DNA of 64,000 bases, taken from the NCBI GenBank assembly GCA_036000845.1, contig DASYUW010000050.1, forward strand, positions 8,238 to 72,237, written 5' to 3'. Shown here piece by piece: positions 6,571 to 60,868 of the stretch. The translations under genes were made by a program, and so were the position numbers. This DNA is from Burkholderiales bacterium. Its GTDB lineage: Bacteria > Pseudomonadota > Gammaproteobacteria > Burkholderiales > JACQAP01. The notes under the pieces are model-generated. The model was not told the DNA's origin, searched no databases, and saw only the letters and a list, made by a program, of their open reading frames with translations. Every line of letters begins with the position of its first letter. The first letter of the stretch is position 1.

Positions 6571-8187
6571 TCATGGGCGGGCGTCGAAAGCATCCACCAC
6601 GATGTAGGCGCTGCTCGAGGCCGCGTTCTTCCGGCCCGTCACTTCGATCGTCAGCGTATGGGTCCCGGCGGCAAGGCCCGACGTCCTGAAGATGGTGTCC
6701 TGGAGCCCGTCCGTAGGGGAATACGTATCGATCTCCGTCACGAAGGCTCCATCCAGGTATACGCGAGCGATCCCGGTCGTGCTTTTACGGCTGCCGATCC
6801 AGCTGACCGACGTCCCGCTGAAGGTGAACGTCGCTTGCGCGCCCGGCTCGCCGGATACCGTGACGGTCCTCATGCTCCACGCCCGGTTGAAGTTGCCCTG
6901 GTCCCAATTGCCGGTGTAGGTGATGGACGGATCTGTCTCTTCGAAGCGCCTTCCCAGCGTAGTTACGAGGAACGCATCCACCACGACCCGAGTACCCGTC
7001 GAATTCGCGTTCTTCCGGCCCGTCGCCTCGATCGTCAACGTATGGTTTGCATCGGCCATGGTCGGCGACGTGAAGACGATGGCCTGGACACGCTGGCCCG
7101 GATTGTACAGATCGACCTCGCCAGCGAAGCTGCCATCCAGGTATACGCTGGCGATTCCGGCATCGGGCCCGCGATAGCCGATCCAGCTGATCGAAGTTCC
7201 GATGAATGGCAACCTGGCTCGCGCGCCGGGCGTGGTCGAGTCCGTGGCGAACCAGCTACTCCACGGTTTGCTGTTGTCCCACGGGGTCCAGCCGGTGGTG
7301 AAGGACAGGTCTGGATCCGTATCCTGCAACTGCGAAACTACCGGTGCGGGCACGTCGAATGCATCCACCACGACCAGGGCCAACGGCGAACTGGCGGCCT
7401 GCGAATCACCGTTCTTCCGTCCGGTGGCTTCGATCGTCAACGTATGGCTGCTGTTGGTCAGGCCGCTCGCCGTGAAGATGGGCACGTGGATCTCGTTCGA
7501 CCTCATAAACATGTCGACTTCGGATACAAAGACTCCATCCACGAACACGCGAGCGATGCCGCTATCGTAGCCACGCATGCCGATCCATGTGACCGAGGTC
7601 CCGGTGAAGGTGAACGTGGCTTGCGCGCCCGGCGTCATGGATTCCGCGGCTGCCCCCCCGCTCCAGGCATACCAGCCGGTCCCGCGGAAATCGTCATCAC
7701 GCCGATTCCAACCGATACCGTAGCGCACCGACGCATCCGTTTCTTCATAGCGCTTTACCGCCTCCGGTGGCGGGGGAGCATTGGAAATCGTGATCGTTAC
7801 CGGCGCCGAGGTGGTCTGGTTTCCTGCGGCATCGCGGGCCACCGCCGTCAGAGTGTACGACCCATCCGGGATATTGTTCGTGTACGCGGTTGCCGTGTAG
7901 GGAGGAAAGTTGTCCTCCGCGTCGAAGTTGATTCCGTTGTACTTGAACTGGACACCCGCGACACCGACATTATCGGAGGCGTCGGCCGTCACGGTGATCG
8001 TGCCGGAAACAGTCGCCCCGGACGCGGGCGAGGTGATTCTGACCGTCGGCGGAGTGTTGTCCGGGCTGGCGCACGTTAAGCCTGGAATGCATGGCAGTAG
8101 CTGTGCGGAAGCCTGGGGCGGGATCCAGGCCAGGCTGATAATCACTAATGGGGCCGCCGCACAAACACCTTTCACAATTTTCAACAT
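6571..8187 (-). CDS. Secreted protein: signal peptide + Ig-like domain + three tandem carbohydrate-binding-module-like repeats
   Basis: 538 aa. N-terminus is MLKIVKGVCAAAPLVIISLAWIPPQASA. The Ig-like segment is PPTVRITSPASGATVSGTITVTADASDNVGVAGVQF. Three repeats of about 125 aa follow, each with ATFTFtGTSvsWIG...GIArVylDG...HTLTIEaTGRKN...VVVDAF. No catalytic domain is recognisable. Confidence 0.8.
   Translation of the reverse strand: MLKIVKGVCAAAPLVIISLAWIPPQASAQLLPCIPGLTCASPDNTPPTVRITSPASGATVSGTITVTADASDNVGVAGVQFKYNGINFDAEDNFPPYTATAYTNNIPDGSYTLTAVARDAAGNQTTSAPVTITISNAPPPPEAVKRYEETDASVRYGIGWNRRDDDFRGTGWYAWSGGAAAESMTPGAQATFTFTGTSVTWIGMRGYDSGIARVFVDGVFVSEVDMFMRSNEIHVPIFTASGLTNSSHTLTIEATGRKNGDSQAASSPLALVVVDAFDVPAPVVSQLQDTDPDLSFTTGWTPWDNSKPWSSWFATDSTTPGARARLPFIGTSISWIGYRGPDAGIASVYLDGSFAGEVDLYNPGQRVQAIVFTSPTMADANHTLTIEATGRKNANSTGTRVVVDAFLVTTLGRRFEETDPSITYTGNWDQGNFNRAWSMRTVTVSGEPGAQATFTFSGTSVSWIGSRKSTTGIARVYLDGAFVTEIDTYSPTDGLQDTIFRTSGLAAGTHTLTIEVTGRKNAASSSAYIVVDAFDARP
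6580..7752 (-). repeat. Three tandem ~380-bp intragenic repeats encoding the CBM-like modules
   Basis: The protein repeats cover aa 146-279, 286-407 and 414-536. The DNA-level similarity is visible, e.g. gcatccaccacga...ttcttccggcccgtc.c.tcgatcgtca.cgtatgg recurs three times. Confidence 0.8.
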
Positions 8188-30741: not shown

Positions 30742-31251
30742 TCACGGCGTCGCGTCGCCGCCTCGATTTGCTCCGTCCCGTCGCATACGCAGGCGCAGCG
30801 TGCCGTCGGCCTGCGACACTTGGAAATGACGCAGGAAATTCTGACCGAGGAGGCCTTCTCCATCATGCGCCGGCATCACCGCAACGGTAAGGCCGGAAAG
30901 CTCGAACACGTCCGCCTTTACGGTCTGGTTTCTCACCACCCGGCCCTCGACAGTGCCGTTGGCGGTGCTGAAATAGCCGGGGATTCCTTCCGGCAATCCG
31001 GCCGAACGGGCGAACTCCGCGCCGACCGATACGTAACTGGCGCCAGTGTCGATCATGAATCGCAGAGGCACGCCGTTCACCGCACCATCGAGGTAGTGGT
31101 GACCGTTGCGCGAGACCGGTATCGCGATCTCCTGCCTTCCACCGGCCAGCGAACGCGCGACCGGCGGCGGCACCATCATGCGCTCGGTCATGAGATAACC
31201 GGCGAACACCAAGCCGACCCAGACCGCGGTCCAGAACAGATGTCCCTTCAT
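30742..31251 (-). CDS. Membrane-anchored retropepsin-like (clan AA, DTGA-type) aspartic protease
   Basis: 169 aa with one N-terminal TM helix and the motif FMIDTGASYVSV. Confidence 0.8.
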   Translation of the reverse strand: MKGHLFWTAVWVGLVFAGYLMTERMMVPPPVARSLAGGRQEIAIPVSRNGHHYLDGAVNGVPLRFMIDTGASYVSVGAEFARSAGLPEGIPGYFSTANGTVEGRVVRNQTVKADVFELSGLTVAVMPAHDGEGLLGQNFLRHFQVSQADGTLRLRMRRDGANRGGDATP

Positions 31252-31263
31252 CTGAAGCGGTGC

Positions 31264-31467
31264 TGGTGATTGGTGACTGGTGATTGGTAATTAGAGAAAA
31301 ACAGGACTCAGGACGCGGGATTCAGGACTCAGTGAAAAGAAAGCCAGATATTGAATGCAGGACTCGATGAAAAAACACTTCCGACCGACCGCTTTGCTCC
31401 CTCTCTCCGGTACCCGGGTAGAGGGCCGGGGTGACGGGCAAGTCCTGAGCCCTGAATCCTGAGCCCC
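31264..31467. repeat. Heptamer-array element: TGGTGAY x4 (31264-31291), CAGGACT-type x4 (31302-31332), and inverted AGTCCTG-type x3-4 (31441-31467)
   Basis: Read directly: TGGTGAT TGGTGAC TGGTGAT TGGTAAT; CAGGACT CAGGACG CGGGATT CAGGACT; AGTCCTG AGCCCTG AATCCTG AGCCCC. The last two arrays are mutually complementary across a ~108-nt spacer. Confidence 0.75.
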
Positions 31468-31474
31468 GTCTTTA

Positions 31475-32091: not shown

Positions 32092-33213
32092 TTATAGCCT
32101 TTCCGCACAAAATTTAGCCAGATTCCCAGCCAGATCGCCGGGTCCGGCGAGTCGTTGTTCCCAGGCCTGCGCCAATTCCCGATATTCCGGCCCGCTGCAG
32201 GCCGTCCAGGCTGCCGCCAGCCCATCGACCGCGGCAAAACCGTTCCACACCGCCCACAGTTTGGCCAGATTTGCGCTGGTGCCGGGCCCGGCATGCTCGA
32301 GATAGCGTGCCAGGAAGGCCTCGACCTTCAACCGGTGCGCATCGCCGGCCTGCGGATAGGCCTGCCAGACCAACGGTCGGGCCGCCAACTGCGCACGTAC
32401 GAAGGAATCCTCGCCGCGCACGAAATTCCAGTCGCAGGACCACAGTACGCGGTCGTAGTCGTATTGCGAAAGAAAGGGGAGCATTTGCGCAATGAGCGTG
32501 CCGACCCGCCCGCCTCCCGCCAGGCCGCGTGCCGCGAGCACATCCGCGGCCGCGGTGCCGGCAAACGCAAGCGCGCGCACCGGGCGCCCGCCGGTAGCCC
32601 AGACGTCCAGGAGCGCAGCGACCGGCGCCTCGGGATAGCAGAACAGCGAGACCAGCTGCTCGCCGTGGGCCCGCGGCAGCACGCCGAGCGACGCCAGAAA
32701 CTGCGCCACGCCGCCCGCGTCGGACTGGAATGCCAGCCGCCGCGCGGCCAATCCCTTTTCGACCAGCACGCCGCCGGTACCGGGGACAAAGCCAGGGAAG
32801 AAGAAGTACTTCGTCAGAGGCAGCCGCTGATGCGGCGACGGCAGGCCATGGCAGCCGCCGACCCAGGGTTCGGCGCTCAGATATTCGAGATTGATCCACA
32901 CCGGCGACCGTGCACGCCCGGCCATGGCCTCGACAAACGAAGCCGGCAATTCGCAGCCGAAAGTCTCCACCACCATATCGGCAGGCTCCACCGCCGGAAA
33001 CGGCGTGATCCAGCGCCGCACCTCGACGCCGTCGAGCGACTGCGCACCGCTTCCGGGATCGAGCGCCGGCGCCAGCCGCCCGAAGGTCGCCAGATCATCG
33101 ACCCAAAGCCGCACCGCGGCGCCGTGTTCGGCGGCAAGCTGGCGCGCCAGCCGCCAGCTAACACCGATGTCGCCGAAATTGTCGACGACGTTGCAGAAGA
33201 GATCCCAGCGCAT
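32092..33213 (-). CDS. earP: EF-P arginine-32 rhamnosyltransferase EarP
   Basis: [31 protein letters not shown] is the hallmark EarP N-terminus. The gene is adjacent to the Arg-type efp. The track start 33219 is a TTG; I prefer ATG 33213. Confidence 0.85.
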
Positions 33214-33217
33214 AGGC

Positions 33218-33305
33218 AAGGATGAAGGATGAGGGATGAAGGATGAAGGAAAGTCAAAAGCCTTTGAACTTACTTCATCCTTCTGCCTTCCGCCTTCATA
33301 CTTGC
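33218..33305. repeat. Heptamer-array hairpin, AAGGATG family (copy 1)
   Basis: Left arm: AAGGATG AAGGATG AGGGATG AAGGATG AAGGAAA. Right arm: TACTTCA TCCTTCT GCCTTCC GCCTTCA TACTTGC. The arms are largely complementary. The loop-proximal ttgaacttacttcatcc is shared with 60793-60809. Confidence 0.8.
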
Positions 33306-37396: not shown

Positions 37397-38188
37397 ATGC
37401 CTGACCGCTCCAAGACACATCTAGTTCTGATCCCCAGTTACGACACCGGTGACAAGGTCCTGGAAACAGTCCGCAAAACGCAGCGTCTCTGGGAGCCGGT
37501 GTGGGTGGTGGTGGATGGGAGCACCGACGGCACTGCGGAGCGACTGCAGGCCCTCGCCCGCGCCGACGCCGGACTGCGGGTGTTCGTGCTGCCCCGCAAC
37601 CAGGGCAAGGGTGCCGCAGTACTGCACGGCCTGCGCGCGGCGGTCGCGCAAGGCTACACCCACATACTGACCTTGGACGCCGACGGCCAGCACCCGGCCG
37701 AGCGCATCCCGGCATTCATGCAAATGTCGGCGCTGCAGCCCGAGGCGCTGGTGCTGGGCAAGCCGATGTTCGACGCCACAGCCCCCAGGCTGCGGGTGAT
37801 GGGCCGGCGCATTTCCAACTGGTGGGCAAATCTCGAGACGCTTTGGGCGGGTATCGGCGACTCGCTGTTCGGCATGCGCGTCTACCCGGCTGCGGCGCTG
37901 CTGCAGGTGATGGAGTCGCAGCGCTGGATGCGGCGTTTCGACTTCGACGTCGAAGCCGCGGTGAGGCTGGTATGGGGTGGCGCCCATCCGGTCAACCTGC
38001 CAGCGCCTGTCCGCTATTTCCGCCCCGAGGAAGGCGGCGTGTCACATTTCAACTACCTGCGCGACAACGCGCTGCTGAGCTGGATGCACACCCGGCTGTT
38101 CTTCGGGTTCCTGATAAGGTTGCCGGTATTGATCGCAAAGAAGCTGAGAACAGAGAGGACAGGGGAAAGAGGAAAGACAAAAGCTTAA
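37397..38188 (+). CDS. Glycosyltransferase family 2 (DPM1-like)
   Basis: LVLIPSYDTG...VVVDGSTDGT...LTLDADGQH is the GT-A DxD architecture. The last ~14 codons lie in the heptamer array. Confidence 0.85.
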   Translation: MPDRSKTHLVLIPSYDTGDKVLETVRKTQRLWEPVWVVVDGSTDGTAERLQALARADAGLRVFVLPRNQGKGAAVLHGLRAAVAQGYTHILTLDADGQHPAERIPAFMQMSALQPEALVLGKPMFDATAPRLRVMGRRISNWWANLETLWAGIGDSLFGMRVYPAAALLQVMESQRWMRRFDFDVEAAVRLVWGGAHPVNLPAPVRYFRPEEGGVSHFNYLRDNALLSWMHTRLFFGFLIRLPVLIAKKLRTERTGERGKTKA

Positions 38189-38270
38189 AACCCAAGGAAC
38201 GGGCTCGGCATCGGTCCGTTCTGCTTTTTCTTGCCTCTTTTAACTTTTCTCTTTTGTCTCGCTTCTTCCC
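38146..38270. repeat. Heptamer-array hairpin, purine-rich variant, between convergent genes
   Basis: Left: GAGAACA GAGAGGA CAGGGGA AAGAGGA AAGACAA AAGCTTA. Right: TGCTTTT TCTTGCC TCTTTTA ACTTTTC TCTTTTG TCTCGCT TCTTCCC. Both stop codons (38186-88 and 38240-42) lie inside the element. Confidence 0.75.
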
Positions 38271-40579
38271 GTCAGAATCGCGGCGAACACCAGGCTTAGA
38301 AAGGCACCGATCGCGACCGTGGAGCCGATGGCCGACAGTACCGGGGTGCTGGCGAAACCGATGACGCCGAAGCCGATGACTGTGGAGAGATTGCAGAGCA
38401 ACAGCGAGGTCACGGTACGCTCCGGGATGGCGTTGGCCATGTTGCGGCGCTCGAAGAACAAGGTGTAGTTGGAACCGACACCAATCACCAGCAGCAGCGC
38501 GACCACATGGAAGATGTTGAGCCGGTCGCCACCGGCAATCAGGATCGCGACGGTGACGATGACAGCGGCGGTGAGCGGCGCAAGCACTTCCCAGGAACGC
38601 CGCAATGATCGCAGCGCTGCCGCCAGCAGTAGCACAATCGCGGCCGCACCGAACAGCGCGAACTGCAGCACCCTCGCCAGGTAGCCCTGATACAACGCAT
38701 CGGATTCGCGCTTGAGGTCGAGCAACACCACCCCTTGCGGACCGAAGCGCTCGATTTGCTGTTCCAGCGCGACGGTGTCGGTCACGCCCCGCAGCGGCAG
38801 CATCGCAAACCACTGTGCGCGCCGTTGAACCAGCAGCGCCTCCAGCTTCAACGCCAGCGCTGTGCCCTGCAGGTCCGCACGCACCAGCGCGGGCTGCCTC
38901 TTCGCCGCTTGCGCTTCTTCGACGAACGGCGTAAATACCCCGGCGCGAAACGGCAGACCCTCCGCAGCTTTGGCCAGATCGCGCCGCAGTTTTTCGGCGT
39001 CCGGTATCGCCCTCTGGCGGGCCCGTTGTGCGGCCACGCTCGGAAGATAGTGCGCCGGGGAATCGTAGCCCGCCAGCACTCCAGCGGACTGGAGTCCGGC
39101 GAGTACAACACCCACGCGTTCGGCCGTTTCCAGCGCTGCCTGCTCGGAATCGCCCGTTACCACGACCAGCTGACGCACGTCCGGCGCTCCAAGATCGCTG
39201 CGCAATGCCTCGTCCATGCGTTGATCGGACGCCGATACCGGGCTCAGGCCGGACAGGTCGTCGTTCCACGGTGTTGCACCCTGCAAGGTCAGCCATACGG
39301 CCAGCACGAGAACAATCCCAATCAACGGCACGCGCAATGCGCGGCCGCGCGCGATCAGGCGCAACAGCACCGGCGCCAGCGTGCCCACGGCCCTGACGCT
39401 ATAGCCACGCGGCACCAGTTCGGGCAATACCCAGCGCGTCACCGCCGCCGCCGTCACCAGTCCGGCGATCGAGAACAGCCCGAGCTGCGCCAGCCCTGGG
39501 AATCCGGAGAACAGCATCGCGGCGCAGCCCAACACCGAGGTGAGCACGCCCAGCCGCAACGTCGGCCAAATGCGCTTGAGCGCGGCTTGCGGCGGGCTGC
39601 CCGGCGCCGTGTTGGTGAACAGGTAAATCGCGTAGTCAACCGCCTCGCCGATCAGTGTGGCGCCGAAGCCGAGGGTCACACCGTGCACCGAGCCGAAGCC
39701 CAGGCTAACCGCAGCGATACCGGCCAGCACCCCGCTGGCCACCGGCACCAGTGTCAGCGCGAGCACCCGCACCGAGCGATACGCGATCAGTAGGCCTGCG
39801 GACACCAGGACTGTGGCAATCAGGGAAAAACGCAGCGCATCCTGCTTGATGCCGGCGCGGGACCTGACCGCAAAGACGCCCGGTCCGCTGACTAGCAAGC
39901 GCGCGCTGTCGGCACGCTGTTCGTGCACCGCCTGCTCGAAAGCCGTGCGGATCGCTGCATGCGCCTGCTCCTGCGCGTCCAGGTCGAAACCCGGGGCGCG
40001 GGTCTGAGCCAGCAGCAGCGCGCGGCTACCGTCGCGCGAGAACCAAACGTCGCCGCGCTTGTCCGGCCCGCCTTCCTCGCGCAATTGCTCGAGCAGACGC
40101 AGGAACTCCCCGGTCGGGTCGCGCGGCAATAGCGGCCCAACAAGCATGCTCGCCGGCGAACCGAGCAGGTCGAGCTGGCGCTCCAGCGCCGCGCGCAGGC
40201 CGGTGACGCTGAAGCGTTCCGGCGCCACCGCCCCGCTGAGCAGATAACGATTGCGCAGCAGGAATTCACCGTCGACGCGCAGCCGGTCCTGCGCACCGTT
40301 GGCAACGTGGGCAAAACGCGCATCGTGCTCCAGCCGGGCGGCCAGTCCCCGGCTTACGGCGGCGAGCCGGTCCTGCGGCGCGCCTTCGATTCCGACTAGG
40401 GTCAGCCGCGACACCACGCCGTCGCGCAGTTCGTCCACCAGCATCTGCTGCGCCGGTGTGGGGGAACGCGGTAGAAAGGCCGCGAGATCGGTGCTGAACT
40501 GCGTGCGCGCGATGACGAAGATGCAGGCGGCCACAAGCGCGAGCCACATACCGATGGCCAGCCGTGCCGGAGATGTCAC
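38240..40579 (-). CDS. MMPL/RND-superfamily exporter (ApeM-like)
   Basis: About 780 aa with two 6-TM bundles and two large periplasmic loops. Start assigned to GTG 40579, which forms a GTGA overlap with the upstream stop. The longer N-terminus in the track (40729) is Arg/Pro-rich and implausible. Confidence 0.8.
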   Translation of the reverse strand: MTSPARLAIGMWLALVAACIFVIARTQFSTDLAAFLPRSPTPAQQMLVDELRDGVVSRLTLVGIEGAPQDRLAAVSRGLAARLEHDARFAHVANGAQDRLRVDGEFLLRNRYLLSGAVAPERFSVTGLRAALERQLDLLGSPASMLVGPLLPRDPTGEFLRLLEQLREEGGPDKRGDVWFSRDGSRALLLAQTRAPGFDLDAQEQAHAAIRTAFEQAVHEQRADSARLLVSGPGVFAVRSRAGIKQDALRFSLIATVLVSAGLLIAYRSVRVLALTLVPVASGVLAGIAAVSLGFGSVHGVTLGFGATLIGEAVDYAIYLFTNTAPGSPPQAALKRIWPTLRLGVLTSVLGCAAMLFSGFPGLAQLGLFSIAGLVTAAAVTRWVLPELVPRGYSVRAVGTLAPVLLRLIARGRALRVPLIGIVLVLAVWLTLQGATPWNDDLSGLSPVSASDQRMDEALRSDLGAPDVRQLVVVTGDSEQAALETAERVGVVLAGLQSAGVLAGYDSPAHYLPSVAAQRARQRAIPDAEKLRRDLAKAAEGLPFRAGVFTPFVEEAQAAKRQPALVRADLQGTALALKLEALLVQRRAQWFAMLPLRGVTDTVALEQQIERFGPQGVVLLDLKRESDALYQGYLARVLQFALFGAAAIVLLLAAALRSLRRSWEVLAPLTAAVIVTVAILIAGGDRLNIFHVVALLLVIGVGSNYTLFFERRNMANAIPERTVTSLLLCNLSTVIGFGVIGFASTPVLSAIGSTVAIGAFLSLVFAAILTGRSETKEKS

Positions 40580-41199
40580 CGGTCTTCCCCGTAAACCCTC
40601 ATCACTGACCGATCGCCGTTGGCTTCGTGGACCTCGATCAGATCCACGCGGTCGCGGCTTCCCCCGATCCTGATCAGGCTGATCACCGTACGCATCTCCT
40701 TGTCGCGCGGCACCAGGTACAACCGCCACTGCGCCGGCCCGCCCTCCAGGTCGACACGATAGAAACGCTCGAGCGCCTGGATATCGCCGCTCAAGGTCGA
40801 GCGTATGCTTTCCACGAAGGCACGCAACACCGGGTAATCCTGCAGCCTCAGGCTGCGGCTCTCCCGGCGTGCCGGATTTTCGATGGTGAGCTTGTCGCCG
40901 TCCAGCGTGAGTGTTTCCGGCCTGGGCGAGTGAGTGCGTTTCTCCAGCCGGCCGGGCGCGCTATAGGTCAGCGTTCCACGCAACTCCAGCGGCGCGTTCA
41001 GGACCTTCAGATACTTGCGCTCGACGAAGCGCGCTTTTGAACTCCGGACTTGGCTCAGGTCGCGCATCAGTTTCTCCAAACTCCAGCCTGCGGCCGGTTC
41101 CTGTGCCCATGAACAGGCGCCGCCCAGCAGTCCGGCGATGAAGATCAGCGCGGCCACCGCGGCTTCAGCGCGATGCCGTCGTATCGGCCCAGAAGTCAT
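40576..41199 (-). CDS. LolA-like outer-membrane lipoprotein-carrier-fold protein (ApeL-like)
   Basis: Start MTSGPIRRHRAEAAVAALIFIAGLLGGACSWA (signal peptide). ARFVERKYLKVLNAPLELRGTLTY is typical of the LolA-like proteins of these clusters. Confidence 0.65.
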   Translation of the reverse strand: MTSGPIRRHRAEAAVAALIFIAGLLGGACSWAQEPAAGWSLEKLMRDLSQVRSSKARFVERKYLKVLNAPLELRGTLTYSAPGRLEKRTHSPRPETLTLDGDKLTIENPARRESRSLRLQDYPVLRAFVESIRSTLSGDIQALERFYRVDLEGGPAQWRLYLVPRDKEMRTVISLIRIGGSRDRVDLIEVHEANGDRSVMRVYGEDR

Positions 41200-54021: not shown

Positions 54022-54111
54022 TGGCGGAGGGTGAGGGATTCGAACCCCCGATACCCTTGCGGGTACGCTGGTTTTCAAGACCAGTGCATTCAACCGCTCT
54101 GCCAACCCTCC
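54022..54111 (-). tRNA. tRNA-Ser (TGA)
   Basis: Reverse complement is GGAGGGTTGGCAGAGCGGTTGAATGCACTGGTCTTGAAAACCAGCGTACCCGCAAGGGTATCGGGGGTTCGAATCCCTCACCCTCCGCCA. It has a long variable arm and the anticodon loop CTTGAAA. Confidence 0.9.
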
Positions 54112-54186
54112 GCTGCAATAACTCTGCCGGTTTTAGCTCCGGCTAACCTGAAGGTTACCCTACCCTAGCGCAAGCTTTGCGTGCGC

Positions 54187-54222
54187 CAAGACCGGTGCAT
54201 TTAACCGCTCTGCCACCCTTCC
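54187..54222 (-). pseudogene. Partial copy of tRNA-Ser 5' half (acceptor to anticodon loop), unit 1
   Basis: 32/36 identical to 54076-54111. Similarity stops inside the anticodon loop. It is the first of two tandem units of about 106-111 bp. Confidence 0.7.
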
Positions 54223-54292
54223 GTATCACGCCTGATTTAGCTCCGACATAACCTGGAAGGTTAGTCTACGCAAGCGCCGGCTTTGCAGGCGC

Positions 54293-54328
54293 CAAGTCAG
54301 GTGCATTCAACCGCTCTGCCAACCCTCC
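54293..54328 (-). pseudogene. Partial copy of tRNA-Ser 5' half, unit 2
   Basis: 33/36 identical to 54076-54111. The flanking sequence (GGCGC..GCAAAGC...TAACCT..AGGTTA...GGAGCTAAA) is shared with unit 1. Confidence 0.7.
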
Positions 54329-54445
54329 GAAGGGCGCAAATGATACGCGCATGGCCCGCGCCCGCCAAATGAGGCGTTGAAACTTTGACCCCGGTTAAGT
54401 AGTCTTATGACCTGTAAATTCCATCCCTGAGGAGCCTGTAACCAT

Positions 54446-59804: not shown

Positions 59805-59846
59805 CACTTCATGCTTCCGCCTTCAGCCTTCATCCTTGACCTTCGA
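59805..59846. repeat. Solo CCTTCA-type heptamer array overlapping the hldA stop
   Basis: CACTTCA TGCTTCC GCCTTCA GCCTTCA TCCTTGA CCTTCGA. There is no complementary AAGGATG arm nearby. Confidence 0.65.
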
Positions 59847-60792
59847 ACAATTCTTCGGGGTGAACCACGGCGGTGCCGAGCTTGCCCACGACGATTCCGG
59901 CCGCCTTGTTGGCGAACTGCACTGCCTCGGCGAAGCCGGCGCCGGCCGCAAGCATCACGCCGAGTACGGCAATGACGGTGTCTCCGGCGCCGCTGACATC
60001 GTATACTTCGCGCGCCACGGCGGGCACGTGCAGCCGCTGCTGGTCGCCATACAGCGTCATGCCCTCCTCGCTGCGTGTGATCAACAGAGCATCCAGCCCC
60101 AGTTCACGGCGCATCTTCTGCGCTCTTTCGGCGAGATCGTCCTCGCTTTTCCAGCGTCCCGCCACTTCGCGGAACTCTGCGCGGTTGGGTGTGACCAGCG
60201 TCGCGCCGCGATAGCGGCTGTAATCGTCTCCCTTCGGATCGACCAGCACCGGCTTTCCCGAGGCACGCGCCAGCTCGATCATCTTCTCGATGTGCCTGAG
60301 CCCGCCCTTGCCGTAGTCGGACAGGATCACCACGTCCGCTTTCGGCAGTCGCGACTCGAAGTCGGCGAGTTTGGACATCAGCACTTCATGCCCCGGCTCG
60401 GTTTCGAAATCGATGCGCAGCAACTGCTGCTGGCGGCCGATCACGCGCAACTTGATGGTGGTGGCGAGCCCGGGATCGCGATGCATCTGAGCGGTGATAC
60501 CATCGGCCTCGAGCAGGCGCTGGAGGCAATCGCCGGCTTCGTCCTGCCCGACCACTGACAGCAGCGCAGCCTGCGCACCGACAGCGACGATGTTGCGCGC
60601 AACGTTGGCCGCGCCGCCGAGGCGCTCCTCGGTGCGCCCCACCTTCACCACCGGCACCGGCGCCTCCGGCGAGATCCTGCTCACCTCGCCGAACCAGTAG
60701 CGGTCGAGCATCACGTCCCCGACCACCAGTACCTGCGCGGAACGTAAGGATGAAGGGTGAAGGATGAAGGATGAAGGAGGGTCCGAAGCCAT
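59830..60792 (-). CDS. hldA: D-glycero-beta-D-manno-heptose-7-phosphate kinase (stand-alone HldA, RfaE domain I)
   Basis: VLVVGDVMLDRYWFGEVSRISPEAPVPVV and a PfkB-family C-terminus (DVSGAGDTVIA). There is no adenylyltransferase domain. The first ~16 codons (MASDPPSSFILHPSSL) are encoded by the heptamer array, so the true start is uncertain (GTG 60726 is possible). Confidence 0.85.
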   Translation of the reverse strand: MASDPPSSFILHPSSLRSAQVLVVGDVMLDRYWFGEVSRISPEAPVPVVKVGRTEERLGGAANVARNIVAVGAQAALLSVVGQDEAGDCLQRLLEADGITAQMHRDPGLATTIKLRVIGRQQQLLRIDFETEPGHEVLMSKLADFESRLPKADVVILSDYGKGGLRHIEKMIELARASGKPVLVDPKGDDYSRYRGATLVTPNRAEFREVAGRWKSEDDLAERAQKMRRELGLDALLITRSEEGMTLYGDQQRLHVPAVAREVYDVSGAGDTVIAVLGVMLAAGAGFAEAVQFANKAAGIVVGKLGTAVVHPEELFEGQG

Positions 60793-60868
60793 TGAACTTA
60801 CTTCATCCTTCCGCCTTCATCCTTGCCCTTATCCCTTCCGCCTTCATCCTTGGCCTTCATGGCCTTCC
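60746..60868. repeat. Heptamer-array hairpin, AAGGATG family (copy 2, largest)
   Basis: Left: AAGGATG AAGGGTG AAGGATG AAGGATG AAGGAGG. The loop is gtccgaagccattgaac. Right: about 10 heptamers of the CCTTCNN type (TACTTCA TCCTTCC GCCTTCA TCCTTGC ...) running into the ugd stop codon. Confidence 0.8.

Follow-up and report, generated by a model that had tools for sequence, protein, structure and literature searches.

The window analyzed here, a 64-kb stretch of DNA from a Burkholderiales bacterium (contig DASYUW010000050.1, positions 8,238 to 72,237), contains two runs of minus-strand genes that carry arrays of heptanucleotide repeats at their junctions. The first run leads from a short-chain dehydrogenase/reductase (SDR) gene ('fabG', adh_short) through earP to efp, and the second from ugd through hldA (PfkB) and hldD to a cysM-like gene. 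An original prediction, made from the letters alone, had described AAGGATG-type heptamers facing CCTTCNN-type heptamers at 33218-33305 and 60746-60868 and a third site with a CCTTCA arm only, all placed exactly at gene ends and, for the two complete copies, clearly of one family. These observations were borne out. Tandem Repeats Finder, an inverted-repeat finder and RNAfold agree on two hairpins (stems 33216-33305 and 60737-60841), and the three sites lie at the SDR/earP, ugd/hldA and hldA/hldD junctions (Table 1).

At site 1, 4.7 tandem copies of AAGGATG (33218-33250) and 2.7 copies of CCTTCCG (33279-33297) are embedded in arms of 43 nt each that are 79% complementary. At site 2, AAGGATG is again repeated 4.7 times (60746-60778) opposite CTTCATC-type units at 60801-60860; further pyrimidine-type units of the plus strand extend beyond the paired stem to 60860, and the ugd stop codon (60857-60859) falls within the corresponding purine units of the mRNA. 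The plus strand of site 3 carries a single CCTTC-type array, and on the mRNA the same stretch encodes the final codons of hldA together with its stop. Sites 1 and 2 fold stably in RNAfold, at -45 to -62 kcal/mol (z = -4.4 to -6.2), with 0 of 200 shuffles equally good, and site 3 shows no significant structure by the same comparison (z = -0.14). A search of the window with the 19-mer GAAGGATGAAGGATGAAGG, allowing up to 3 mismatches, returned 11 matches, all at the three named sites, with 0 expected (100 shuffles), and period 7 was the sole tandem-repeat period enriched. Copies 1 and 2 share the loop-proximal string ttgaacttacttcatcc and, read on the minus strand, a non-repeat loop, GAAGTAAGTTCAA(A/T)GGCTT. 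In copy 2 the homologous loop occupies 60784-60800 and contains the ATG (60792) that starts a 320-aa hldA open reading frame (ORF).

Since all flanking genes lie on the minus strand, the plus-strand AAGGATG run corresponds to the CCUUCAU arm of the mRNA, abutting the downstream start, and the purine arm of the mRNA is the complement of the plus-strand CCTTCNN run. The pyrimidine arm is free of stop codons and gene callers run ORFs through it, which accounts for the spurious 'SSFILHPSS' N-termini and for HldA models of 320 or 345 aa as compared with about 308 aa. The low-complexity N-terminus that the original prediction had noticed is indeed present in the mechanical hldA ORF, which begins MASDPPSSFILHPSS.

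Table 1. Coordinates of the heptamer arrays and adjoining genes in the window.
Feature	Coordinates	Strand	Remarks
earP	32092..33213	-	PF10093; gene downstream of copy 1; no Shine-Dalgarno sequence between hairpin and ATG
Hairpin copy 1	33216..33305		Occupies the entire spacer from the SDR ('fabG') stop (33308) to the earP ATG (33213), both minus strand
Copy 1 AAGGATG x5 array	33216..33258	+	Read as mRNA (minus strand), the 3' pyrimidine arm CCUUCAU; 2 nt separate it from the earP AUG
Copy 1 CCTTCNN array	33263..33305	+	On the mRNA, 5' purine arm GUAUGAA GGCGGAA GGCAGAA GGAUGAA, beginning 3 nt past the SDR stop
hldA (PfkB-family heptose-7-phosphate kinase)	59830..60792	-	Native N-terminus (MRREAL... 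in relatives) replaced by residues encoded by the loop and the pyrimidine arm
Hairpin copy 2	60737..60860		Between ugd and hldA; paired stem 60737-60841 (~105 nt)
Decayed copy 3	59805..59846	-	Purine array GAAGGUC AAGGAUG AAGGCUG AAGGCGG on the mRNA strand; partner arm degenerated
CAGGACT x4 vs AGTCCTG hairpin	31297..31473		111 nt between arms; just downstream of efp
Unpaired (A/G)TCACCA x4 array	31259..31292	- (mRNA strand)	Stops 7 nt short of an Asp-protease-family gene (ATG at 31251)
AGAGGAA-type vs TTCTCTT-type arrays	38154..38270		Overlap the 3' ends of two convergent genes

A dispersed and changing family

We compared the window with genome, metagenome and viral loci fetched from sequence collections (L-numbers below). 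The original prediction had allowed that the elements might be absent elsewhere; this is not the case. A metagenome scan with 21 specified loop bases recovered 14 further copies on 13 contigs, all from soil metagenomes and representing at least 11 distinct sites as judged by their flanks. These sites include the ortholog of site 2 (L141), and two contigs hold two copies each within 5-12 kb. One copy joins the same loop to GAGGG/CCCTC arms instead (L140), and several others are nested within an outer GAGGGNN hairpin. A genome scan with the pattern GAAGGATGAAGG-N(3-33)-CTTCATCCTTC detected GAAGGAT hairpins in at least 120 stretches from about 90 metagenome-assembled genomes (MAGs) and at least 10 phyla. 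Real phages have them too. Carriers among the genome matches include Acidobacteriota, Planctomycetota, Chloroflexota, Burkholderiales, Gemmatimonadota, Verrucomicrobiota, a Calothrix and Thioalkalivibrio.

Two observations identify the GAAGGAT hairpins as a genuine sequence family rather than a product of independent drift. The unit AAGGCGG, a double substitution relative to AAGGATG, occurs in 31/68 loci, about three times as often as any single-substitution variant. Moreover, plasmid pTs485 of Candidatus Thiodictyon syntrophicum carries at puhB/puhC (L167 1495-1535) a solo pyrimidine array that is identical at 34/34 positions to the pyrimidine arm of window copy 1. This array stops about 10 nt upstream of the puhC ATG, and the record holds no annotation for it. 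In annotated collections, besides this 34-nt match, we found merely weak matches in Kovacikia and phage PA5oct.

The nearest named relatives of EarP and HldA are found in Burkholderiales or Betaproteobacteria MAGs, and their orthologous spacers show how the elements change. At the SDR-earP spacer, two relatives with 79-83% EarP identity (L126 and L124) carry GAGGGNN/CCCTCNN arrays with a longer loop, a third with 64% identity (L128) carries GTGACTG/AATCACC arrays, and a fourth with 83% identity (L127) is without a clear array. In all compared relatives, pyrimidine-side sequence reaches the earP ATG without a Shine-Dalgarno (SD) sequence. The ugd-hldA and hldA-hldD junctions measure merely 0-11 nt in two relatives with 86-87% HldA identity (L133, L134). 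Because the junctions of relatives are this tight and lack these hairpins, copies 2 and 3 are lineage-specific gains: new copies arise at new spacers, here in the otherwise tight ugd-hldA-hldD operon. Copy 2 took the place of the native hldA start (MRREAL...; HldA of relatives is about 308 aa). Comparison of filled site 2 with the empty junctions of L133 and L134 indicates that about 25 nt were replaced, with no visible target-site duplication, and a miniature inverted-repeat transposable element (MITE) was rejected on this ground. In a closer relative (L132 2987-3019; 92% HldA identity), the ugd-hldA junction holds a purine-only array, GAAGGCG CGAGGCG TGAGGCG AGAGGCG (GAGGCGN x4), which provides an SD-like stretch, a GTG start and codons 1-5 (MRREA) of hldA and may represent a seed or a remnant of window copy 2. 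The hldA-hldD junction of L132 holds an orthologous decayed copy of site 3.

Variation extends to close strains. Relative to the window (60792-60860), the orthologous site in L131 (130-260) has one extra GAAGGCG unit, and these 7 nt shift the frame through the purine arm. In the window allele, an ATG overlapping the ugd stop (ATGA) opens a 20-codon upstream ORF (uORF) that ends at a UAA in the loop, 5 nt before the in-frame loop ATG of the 320-aa HldA; in the L131 allele, the uORF is fused to hldA as one continuous 345-aa ORF. Judged from these two alleles, the 7-nt difference could potentially behave like a phase-variation switch. In 9/14 subfamily copies a uORF could be read that crosses the purine arm and terminates at the UAA of the loop; as a conserved feature it was rejected, since class-wide such ORFs reach equally far in sense and antisense and both orientations occur. 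In three loci from the window's own population (L001 9795-10005, L002 4505-4715 and L003 415-625), a 105-nt spacer unit spanning the SDR stop, the hairpin and the earP ATGCGCT is tandemly duplicated, as opposed to the single copy of the window assembly. One T to G change within the duplication creates a TAG that closes an otherwise in-frame 35-codon EarP extension, and no clean microhomology was found at the duplication in L001. Overall, the arrays change by slippage, through gain and loss of units, and by concerted evolution across both arms, and the loops stay recognizable.

Polarity and placement of heptamer hairpins

The 836 kb surrounding the genome matches contain 306 arrays of period 7 versus about 15 for periods 5, 6, 8 or 9, and 134/306 are built of other, very diverse units, mostly as facing pairs. 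The fetched loci yielded 122 facing pairs. Hairpins of units other than the searched one have a marked polarity, the purine/G-rich arm being the 5' arm in 47 and the 3' arm in 5 (binomial P ~1e-9). Similarly, the purine-first pattern occurs in 19 stretches (23 sites) of viral contigs and the mirror-image pattern in 0. Both strands of an inverted repeat read alike, so this polarity is valid for transcription from either side. Rare pyrimidine-first hairpins (TCCTTTG ... ACAAAGG) do exist on one viral contig (L149 3351-3444 and 5438-5497), one of them between convergent genes. Unpaired arrays were also considered relative to starts and stops; the result was noisy, many were hairpin halves, and the polarity was merely re-shown.

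The hairpins have a median ungapped stem of 30 bp and a median loop of 22 nt, and they are bracketed by genes. On 74/98 sides, no more than 10 nt in either direction separate the helix base from the stop codon of an incoming gene, versus 4/393 shifted controls, and the first in-frame ATG of the outgoing gene lies within -8 to +20 nt of the helix on 55/105 sides versus 66/364 controls. In general, no more than about 20 nt lie between the helix and the following ATG (median 20 nt), and most ATG-abutting cases are without an SD between arm and ATG. Among the classified spacers, 71 are co-directional, 12 convergent and 7 divergent. A T-run of at least 4 follows only 12% of hairpin sides. The 3' arm is stop-free in 96/117 hairpins and the 5' arm has stops in at least 2 frames in 95/117; this asymmetry was discarded as an independent signal, since purine/pyrimidine composition accounts for all of it.

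Bracketing is not restricted to protein-coding genes. A Pyrinomonadaceae locus (L063 700-7210) holds an array of more than 20 tRNA genes in which most spacers measure 7-21 nt, and a single heptamer hairpin lies in each of the five spacers of 82-87 nt, directly against the tRNA ends. All five hairpins have related loops, with differing units (GAATGAT, GAACGAT, GTAAAAA and GAAGGAT). Directly after the last tRNA of the same locus lies a match to YrlA (Y RNA-like; 7076-7207). Contigs of phages, recognized by a terminase large subunit and a major head protein (e.g. L155, L161, IMG/VR), contain 2-4 hairpins per 6-12 kb, bracketed by stop and start as in hosts. In L161, the mechanical TerL ORF begins within a pyrimidine arm (MTLHPSSFILPPS...).

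Neighboring ORFs offered no candidate for a mobilizing enzyme: no recurrent transposase-like ORF was found within +-4 kb of about 120 hairpins, and the commonest recurrent neighbors (ABC-F, NtrC, histidine kinase, TPR and IF2) are generic. Searches with Rfam 15 were likewise negative. In the window, tRNAs only reach the gathering threshold, and at the hairpins merely miRNA-precursor models appear, far below threshold; at 18 other loci, no family overlaps the heptamer hairpins. Among the compared loci, a Planctomycetota MAG (L099 95-199) carries two matches to Acido-Lenti-1 RNA (RF01687) on opposite strands, 15 nt apart.

Relation to known repeats and possible functions

Heptanucleotide repeats have been recognized since 2007 as the most over-represented long simple-sequence repeats (SSRs) in many bacterial genomes, and short tandemly repeated repetitive sequences (STRRs) have been known since 1990; their purpose is a long-standing puzzle. 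STRR units include CCCCAGT, TTGGTCA and CAACAGT. The window elements resemble the STRRs of hupS/hupL and nif-operon spacers in having 7-bp tandem units and a foldable spacer and in lying between cistrons of co-transcribed genes. Unlike STRR1-3, they are built of GAAGGAT/GAAGGCG and are hosted here by an uncultured Burkholderiales lineage and not by heterocystous cyanobacteria; they also differ in their conserved non-repeat loop and their dispersed paralogous copies. All features of an STRR-like class were found here, namely an exact 7-nt unit in at least 3 copies, a facing array, intergenic placement and variation between close strains. The cyanobacterial repeats form a hairpin between hupS and hupL, for which transcript stabilization or translational coupling was proposed (PMC2670836), and a title cited there (Jackman & Mulligan 1995) speaks of 'highly variable but structured' intergenic regions.

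Similar in layout are the GGGAATC heptamers of Xanthomonas, described together with the GGGGAYT heptamers of Nostoc (Rehm et al. 2015, PMC4692102). There, about 185 arrays per genome, with 70-75 convergent pairs, are 89-93% intergenic, mostly between co-directional genes (16% convergent, 7-8% divergent) and near the end of the upstream gene, and they differ in length and sequence between sister species. The GGGAATC pairs share the hairpin layout with the G/purine arm first and have very similar spacer statistics. In contrast to GAAGGAT, which is unable to form G-quadruplexes, the Xanthomonas and Nostoc units contain G-tracts and were studied as formers of such structures, and neither loop homology nor cross-phylum distribution was reported in that study. 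TAACTGA repeats of Beggiatoaceae and cyanobacteria (MacGregor 2015, PMC4679880) are nearly all intergenic and oriented, often end 1 nt before a start codon and are scattered across phyla; translational regulation and cold-shock-protein binding were proposed for them. They resemble the present arrays in standing next to start codons and differ in their unit and in being almost always direct repeats without a facing arm (1 inverted/170). According to Mrazek 2007, as summarized in the same paper, heptanucleotide SSRs outnumber all other long SSRs in many genomes, and Burkholderia is one of the richest. In Geobacter metallireducens, multicopy elements of four or five tandem heptanucleotides were annotated as putative regulatory elements (PMC2700814). 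Those units are different (GGACCGG, MTYCTGA), some copies are intragenic, and that work contains no analysis of polarity or bracketing.

In genomic placement, the elements resemble repetitive extragenic palindromes (REPs), being dispersed, palindromic, located in transcribed spacers and rare in divergent ones. REP/BIME/REPIN, ERIC and Correia elements are dispersed palindromes in transcribed spacers, rare in divergent ones, whose presence varies between strains, and their co-transcribed hairpins can stop exonucleases or serve as RNase III targets. A conserved head and a RAYT transposase characterize REPs, which have no 7-nt periodicity, MITEs have terminal inverted repeats and target-site duplications, and a RAYT is usually encoded by a single copy elsewhere in the genome. 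Neither a recurrent transposase-like ORF within +-4 kb of the hairpins nor a target-site duplication at site 2 was seen here. The intercistronic RNase III sites of phage T7, irregular hairpins of about 25-30 bp between the cistrons of a long polycistronic RNA, serve as a working analogy: the present elements also lie between cistrons and occur in phage structural modules, yet they are built of tandem repeats, which the T7 sites are not. No paper with the GAAGGAT repeat string or the peptide it encodes turned up in the literature searched, and an earlier description may exist in journals outside it. The window elements are a new sequence family within the known, unexplained class of heptanucleotide-repeat hairpins. 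As far as the searched literature shows, the polarity statistics, the bracketing by stop, start and tRNA, the occurrence in phages and the cross-phylum units have not earlier been stated as general rules.

The elements are dispersed, evolve concertedly and are confined to short transcribed spacers, with the purine arm first and flush with coding sequences or tRNAs. Each has purine-rich heptamers (GAAGGAU / GAAGGCG) on its 5' side and complementary pyrimidine heptamers on its 3' side, with about 20-25 nt of family-specific loop in between. We tentatively regard them, at slightly less than an even chance, as dispersed self-complementary heptanucleotide-repeat spacer elements that are STRR-like in build, REP-like in genomic placement and act as co-transcribed operon punctuation. 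They would be transcribed within polycistronic RNAs, since in most co-directional cases the helix and the following ATG are too close together to fit a promoter. With the purine arm made first, the C-rich arm would be paired once made, and the spacer would fold into a closed helix of about 30 bp, flush from the upstream stop or tRNA 3' end to the downstream start or tRNA 5' end. Where spacers are untranslated, this order would protect the C-rich arm from single-strand nucleases and from the loading of Rho. Helices this long are classic RNase III substrates and barriers to 3' exonucleases, and the median stem exceeds the helix of at least 20 bp that such a substrate needs. The helix might therefore be a double-stranded target for RNase III-type processing or a structure protecting 3' ends, and as a side effect the occluded start region of the downstream gene would have its translation damped.

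Several results weigh against punctuation. Stem mismatches carry no signature of a sense-strand RNA (38 G.U versus 38 A.C), the minimum free energies of class hairpins do not differ between sense and antisense strands, and both window copies even fold slightly better on the antisense than on the mRNA strand (for copy 1, stem 33216-33305, -51.9 versus -45 kcal/mol). RNAalifold on 13 copies found almost no covariation, a test made uninformative by how alike the copies are. As recent gains that overwrote a native start, sites 2 and 3 fit an invasive element better than they fit a regulator shaped by evolution. Finally, the exact 7-nt preference and the identity of units across phyla are unexplained by the punctuation model, and the function itself, via processing or stability, is probable but deduced from anatomy alone.

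Many of the same results speak for the main rival, selfish or neutral DNA whose arrays are made and homogenized by slippage on 7-nt units and by template-switch 'correction' of quasi-palindromes. Such DNA would be tolerated where it is least harmful, in short transcribed spacers and with the purine arm first, and would do nothing for the cell. Symmetric stem mismatches, an asymmetric element without an orientation rule, lineage-specific gains at sites 2 and 3 with decay of copy 3, unit-number polymorphism and a 105-nt duplication within one population, and differing units at an orthologous spacer in relatives all fit such an origin, and slippage had been proposed by Mrazek, as cited in PMC4679880 and PMC4692102. 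Mutation alone, however, does not predict a strict, strand-symmetric polarity (47:5 and 23:0), nor the conservation of specific units and unit order across classes and phyla; several copies lie within compact phage structural modules, and relatives with EarP identities as low as 64% still have an array hairpin in front of earP. These four features suggest that more than neutrality is at work; the neutral model likewise fails to account for the exact 7-nt unit, and we consider this origin on the whole unlikely, if a serious contender. Cross-phylum units and fixed polarity in a pan-bacterial and phage class could instead imply a dedicated agent, either a trans-acting reader of 7-nt single strands, for which the hairpins would be operon punctuation or a Rho/RNase shield, or a way of copying that needs no transposase and places new elements precisely between stop and start; this more speculative proposal seems to us a good deal less probable. 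Another reading, in which the arrays are binding sites for a single-stranded 7-mer reader (e.g. a cold-shock/S1-type OB-fold on the pyrimidine arm) or recognition ends for a mobilizing enzyme, draws on the strict 7-nt period, the units conserved across phyla, the solo pyrimidine arrays directly 5' of starts (window 31259-31292 and Thiodictyon puhC) and the binding of one CspB protein per heptamer as cited in PMC4679880. Since units are extremely diverse within and between genomes, no transposase-like or other gene recurs near hairpins and the gained site 2 lacks a visible target-site duplication, we hold it to be improbable.

Three further readings place the function at the start or the end of the flanking genes. 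Translational coupling or occlusion, already proposed for cyanobacterial STRR hairpins (PMC2670836), would have the helix join stop and start and hide the start until a terminating ribosome melts it and re-initiates, or would have +-7 nt switch the frame of a small ORF. Stop and ATG both lie a few nt from the helix base, most ATG-abutting cases lack an SD, the ATGA overlap at site 2 leads to a 20-codon ORF ending 5 nt before the in-frame loop ATG, and the extra unit of L131 fuses that ORF to hldA (345 aa). But the same hairpins stand between tRNA genes and between convergent genes, ORFs of the purine arm reach equally far in sense and antisense, and the orientation of the asymmetric element varies, which leaves coupling with little probability, somewhat above that of binding-site arrays. 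Least credible, to about the same degree, are bidirectional intrinsic terminators and a mimicry of SD and anti-SD. A stable stem directly past stop codons, the 12 cases between convergent genes and a pyrimidine-rich 3' arm that would yield a weak RNA:DNA hybrid could be taken for terminators, yet T-runs are scarce, 71/90 classified spacers are co-directional, with the next ATG mostly too close for a promoter, and hairpins occur within tRNA arrays; a canonical intrinsic terminator was rejected for the window, where no T-run follows either copy on the mRNA strand and a terminator scan flags none. The original prediction had likened the arms to SD and anti-SD strings; as a mechanism, the purine arm would titrate or recruit 30S subunits and the pyrimidine arm would mimic the 16S 3' tail. 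AAGGA is literally the 5-nt SD core, the arrays at the earP spacer of relatives (GAGGG, GGUGAU) are likewise SD-like, the three unit types at this spacer resemble different parts of the SD consensus, and the purine-only array of L132 serves as a ribosome-binding site for hldA. On the mRNA, however, the arm beside the start codon is the pyrimidine arm, and the purine arm that had been singled out, together with its mini-ORF ATGAAGGATGAAGGATGA, is located on the antisense strand. The 15 nt 5' of the earP ATG read CCUUCAUCCUUGCCU, and the SD-like units of the window mRNAs lie 60-90 nt upstream of the start and are paired, so earP lacks the paired SD 5-10 nt upstream of the start that marks a hairpin sequestering a ribosome-binding site. 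The arms are paired to each other, the same hairpins occur between tRNA genes, where there is no translation, and the asymmetric element has no fixed orientation relative to its neighbors (4 sense, 2 antisense, 1 convergent). Class-wide, ORFs that start at an ATG in the purine arm have equal reach on both strands. When 46 other unit types were compared with TAAGGAGGTGATC for complementarity to the 16S tail, 4 matches of at least 5 nt were seen versus 6.4 expected for letter-shuffled units, thus no SD enrichment beyond composition. At the class level, the mimicry is largely refuted, and it is not supported as what defines the element.

The measured rules (purine first, flush bracketing, no U-tract, presence in phages) make concrete experiments feasible. 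The window offers a clean comparable case: its paralogous copies have a loop in common, relatives have other units at an orthologous spacer and empty sites elsewhere, and unit number is polymorphic between strains.

Further arrays and neighboring genes

Other heptamer arrays of the window are listed in Table 1. The convergent genes that meet at the AGAGGAA-type arrays encode a glycosyltransferase (37397-38188, plus strand) and an MMPL protein (38240-40729, minus strand), and the array encodes K/E/R/G-rich C-terminal tails of both. The SDR gene upstream of earP is the last gene of a cluster at 33308-~45000 (and L001 1-9800) that also contains ApeI-like, LolA_3, MMPL, glycosyltransferase, acyltransferase, MipA and FAD-halogenase-like genes. 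This cluster is of the aryl-polyene type, and the SDR is therefore probably not a housekeeping fabG. At 54022-54330, a 106-nt unit is repeated 2.4 times beside tRNA-Ser(tga), each time reproducing the 5' portion of that tRNA; a local duplication or the scar left at the attachment site of an integrative element could account for it.

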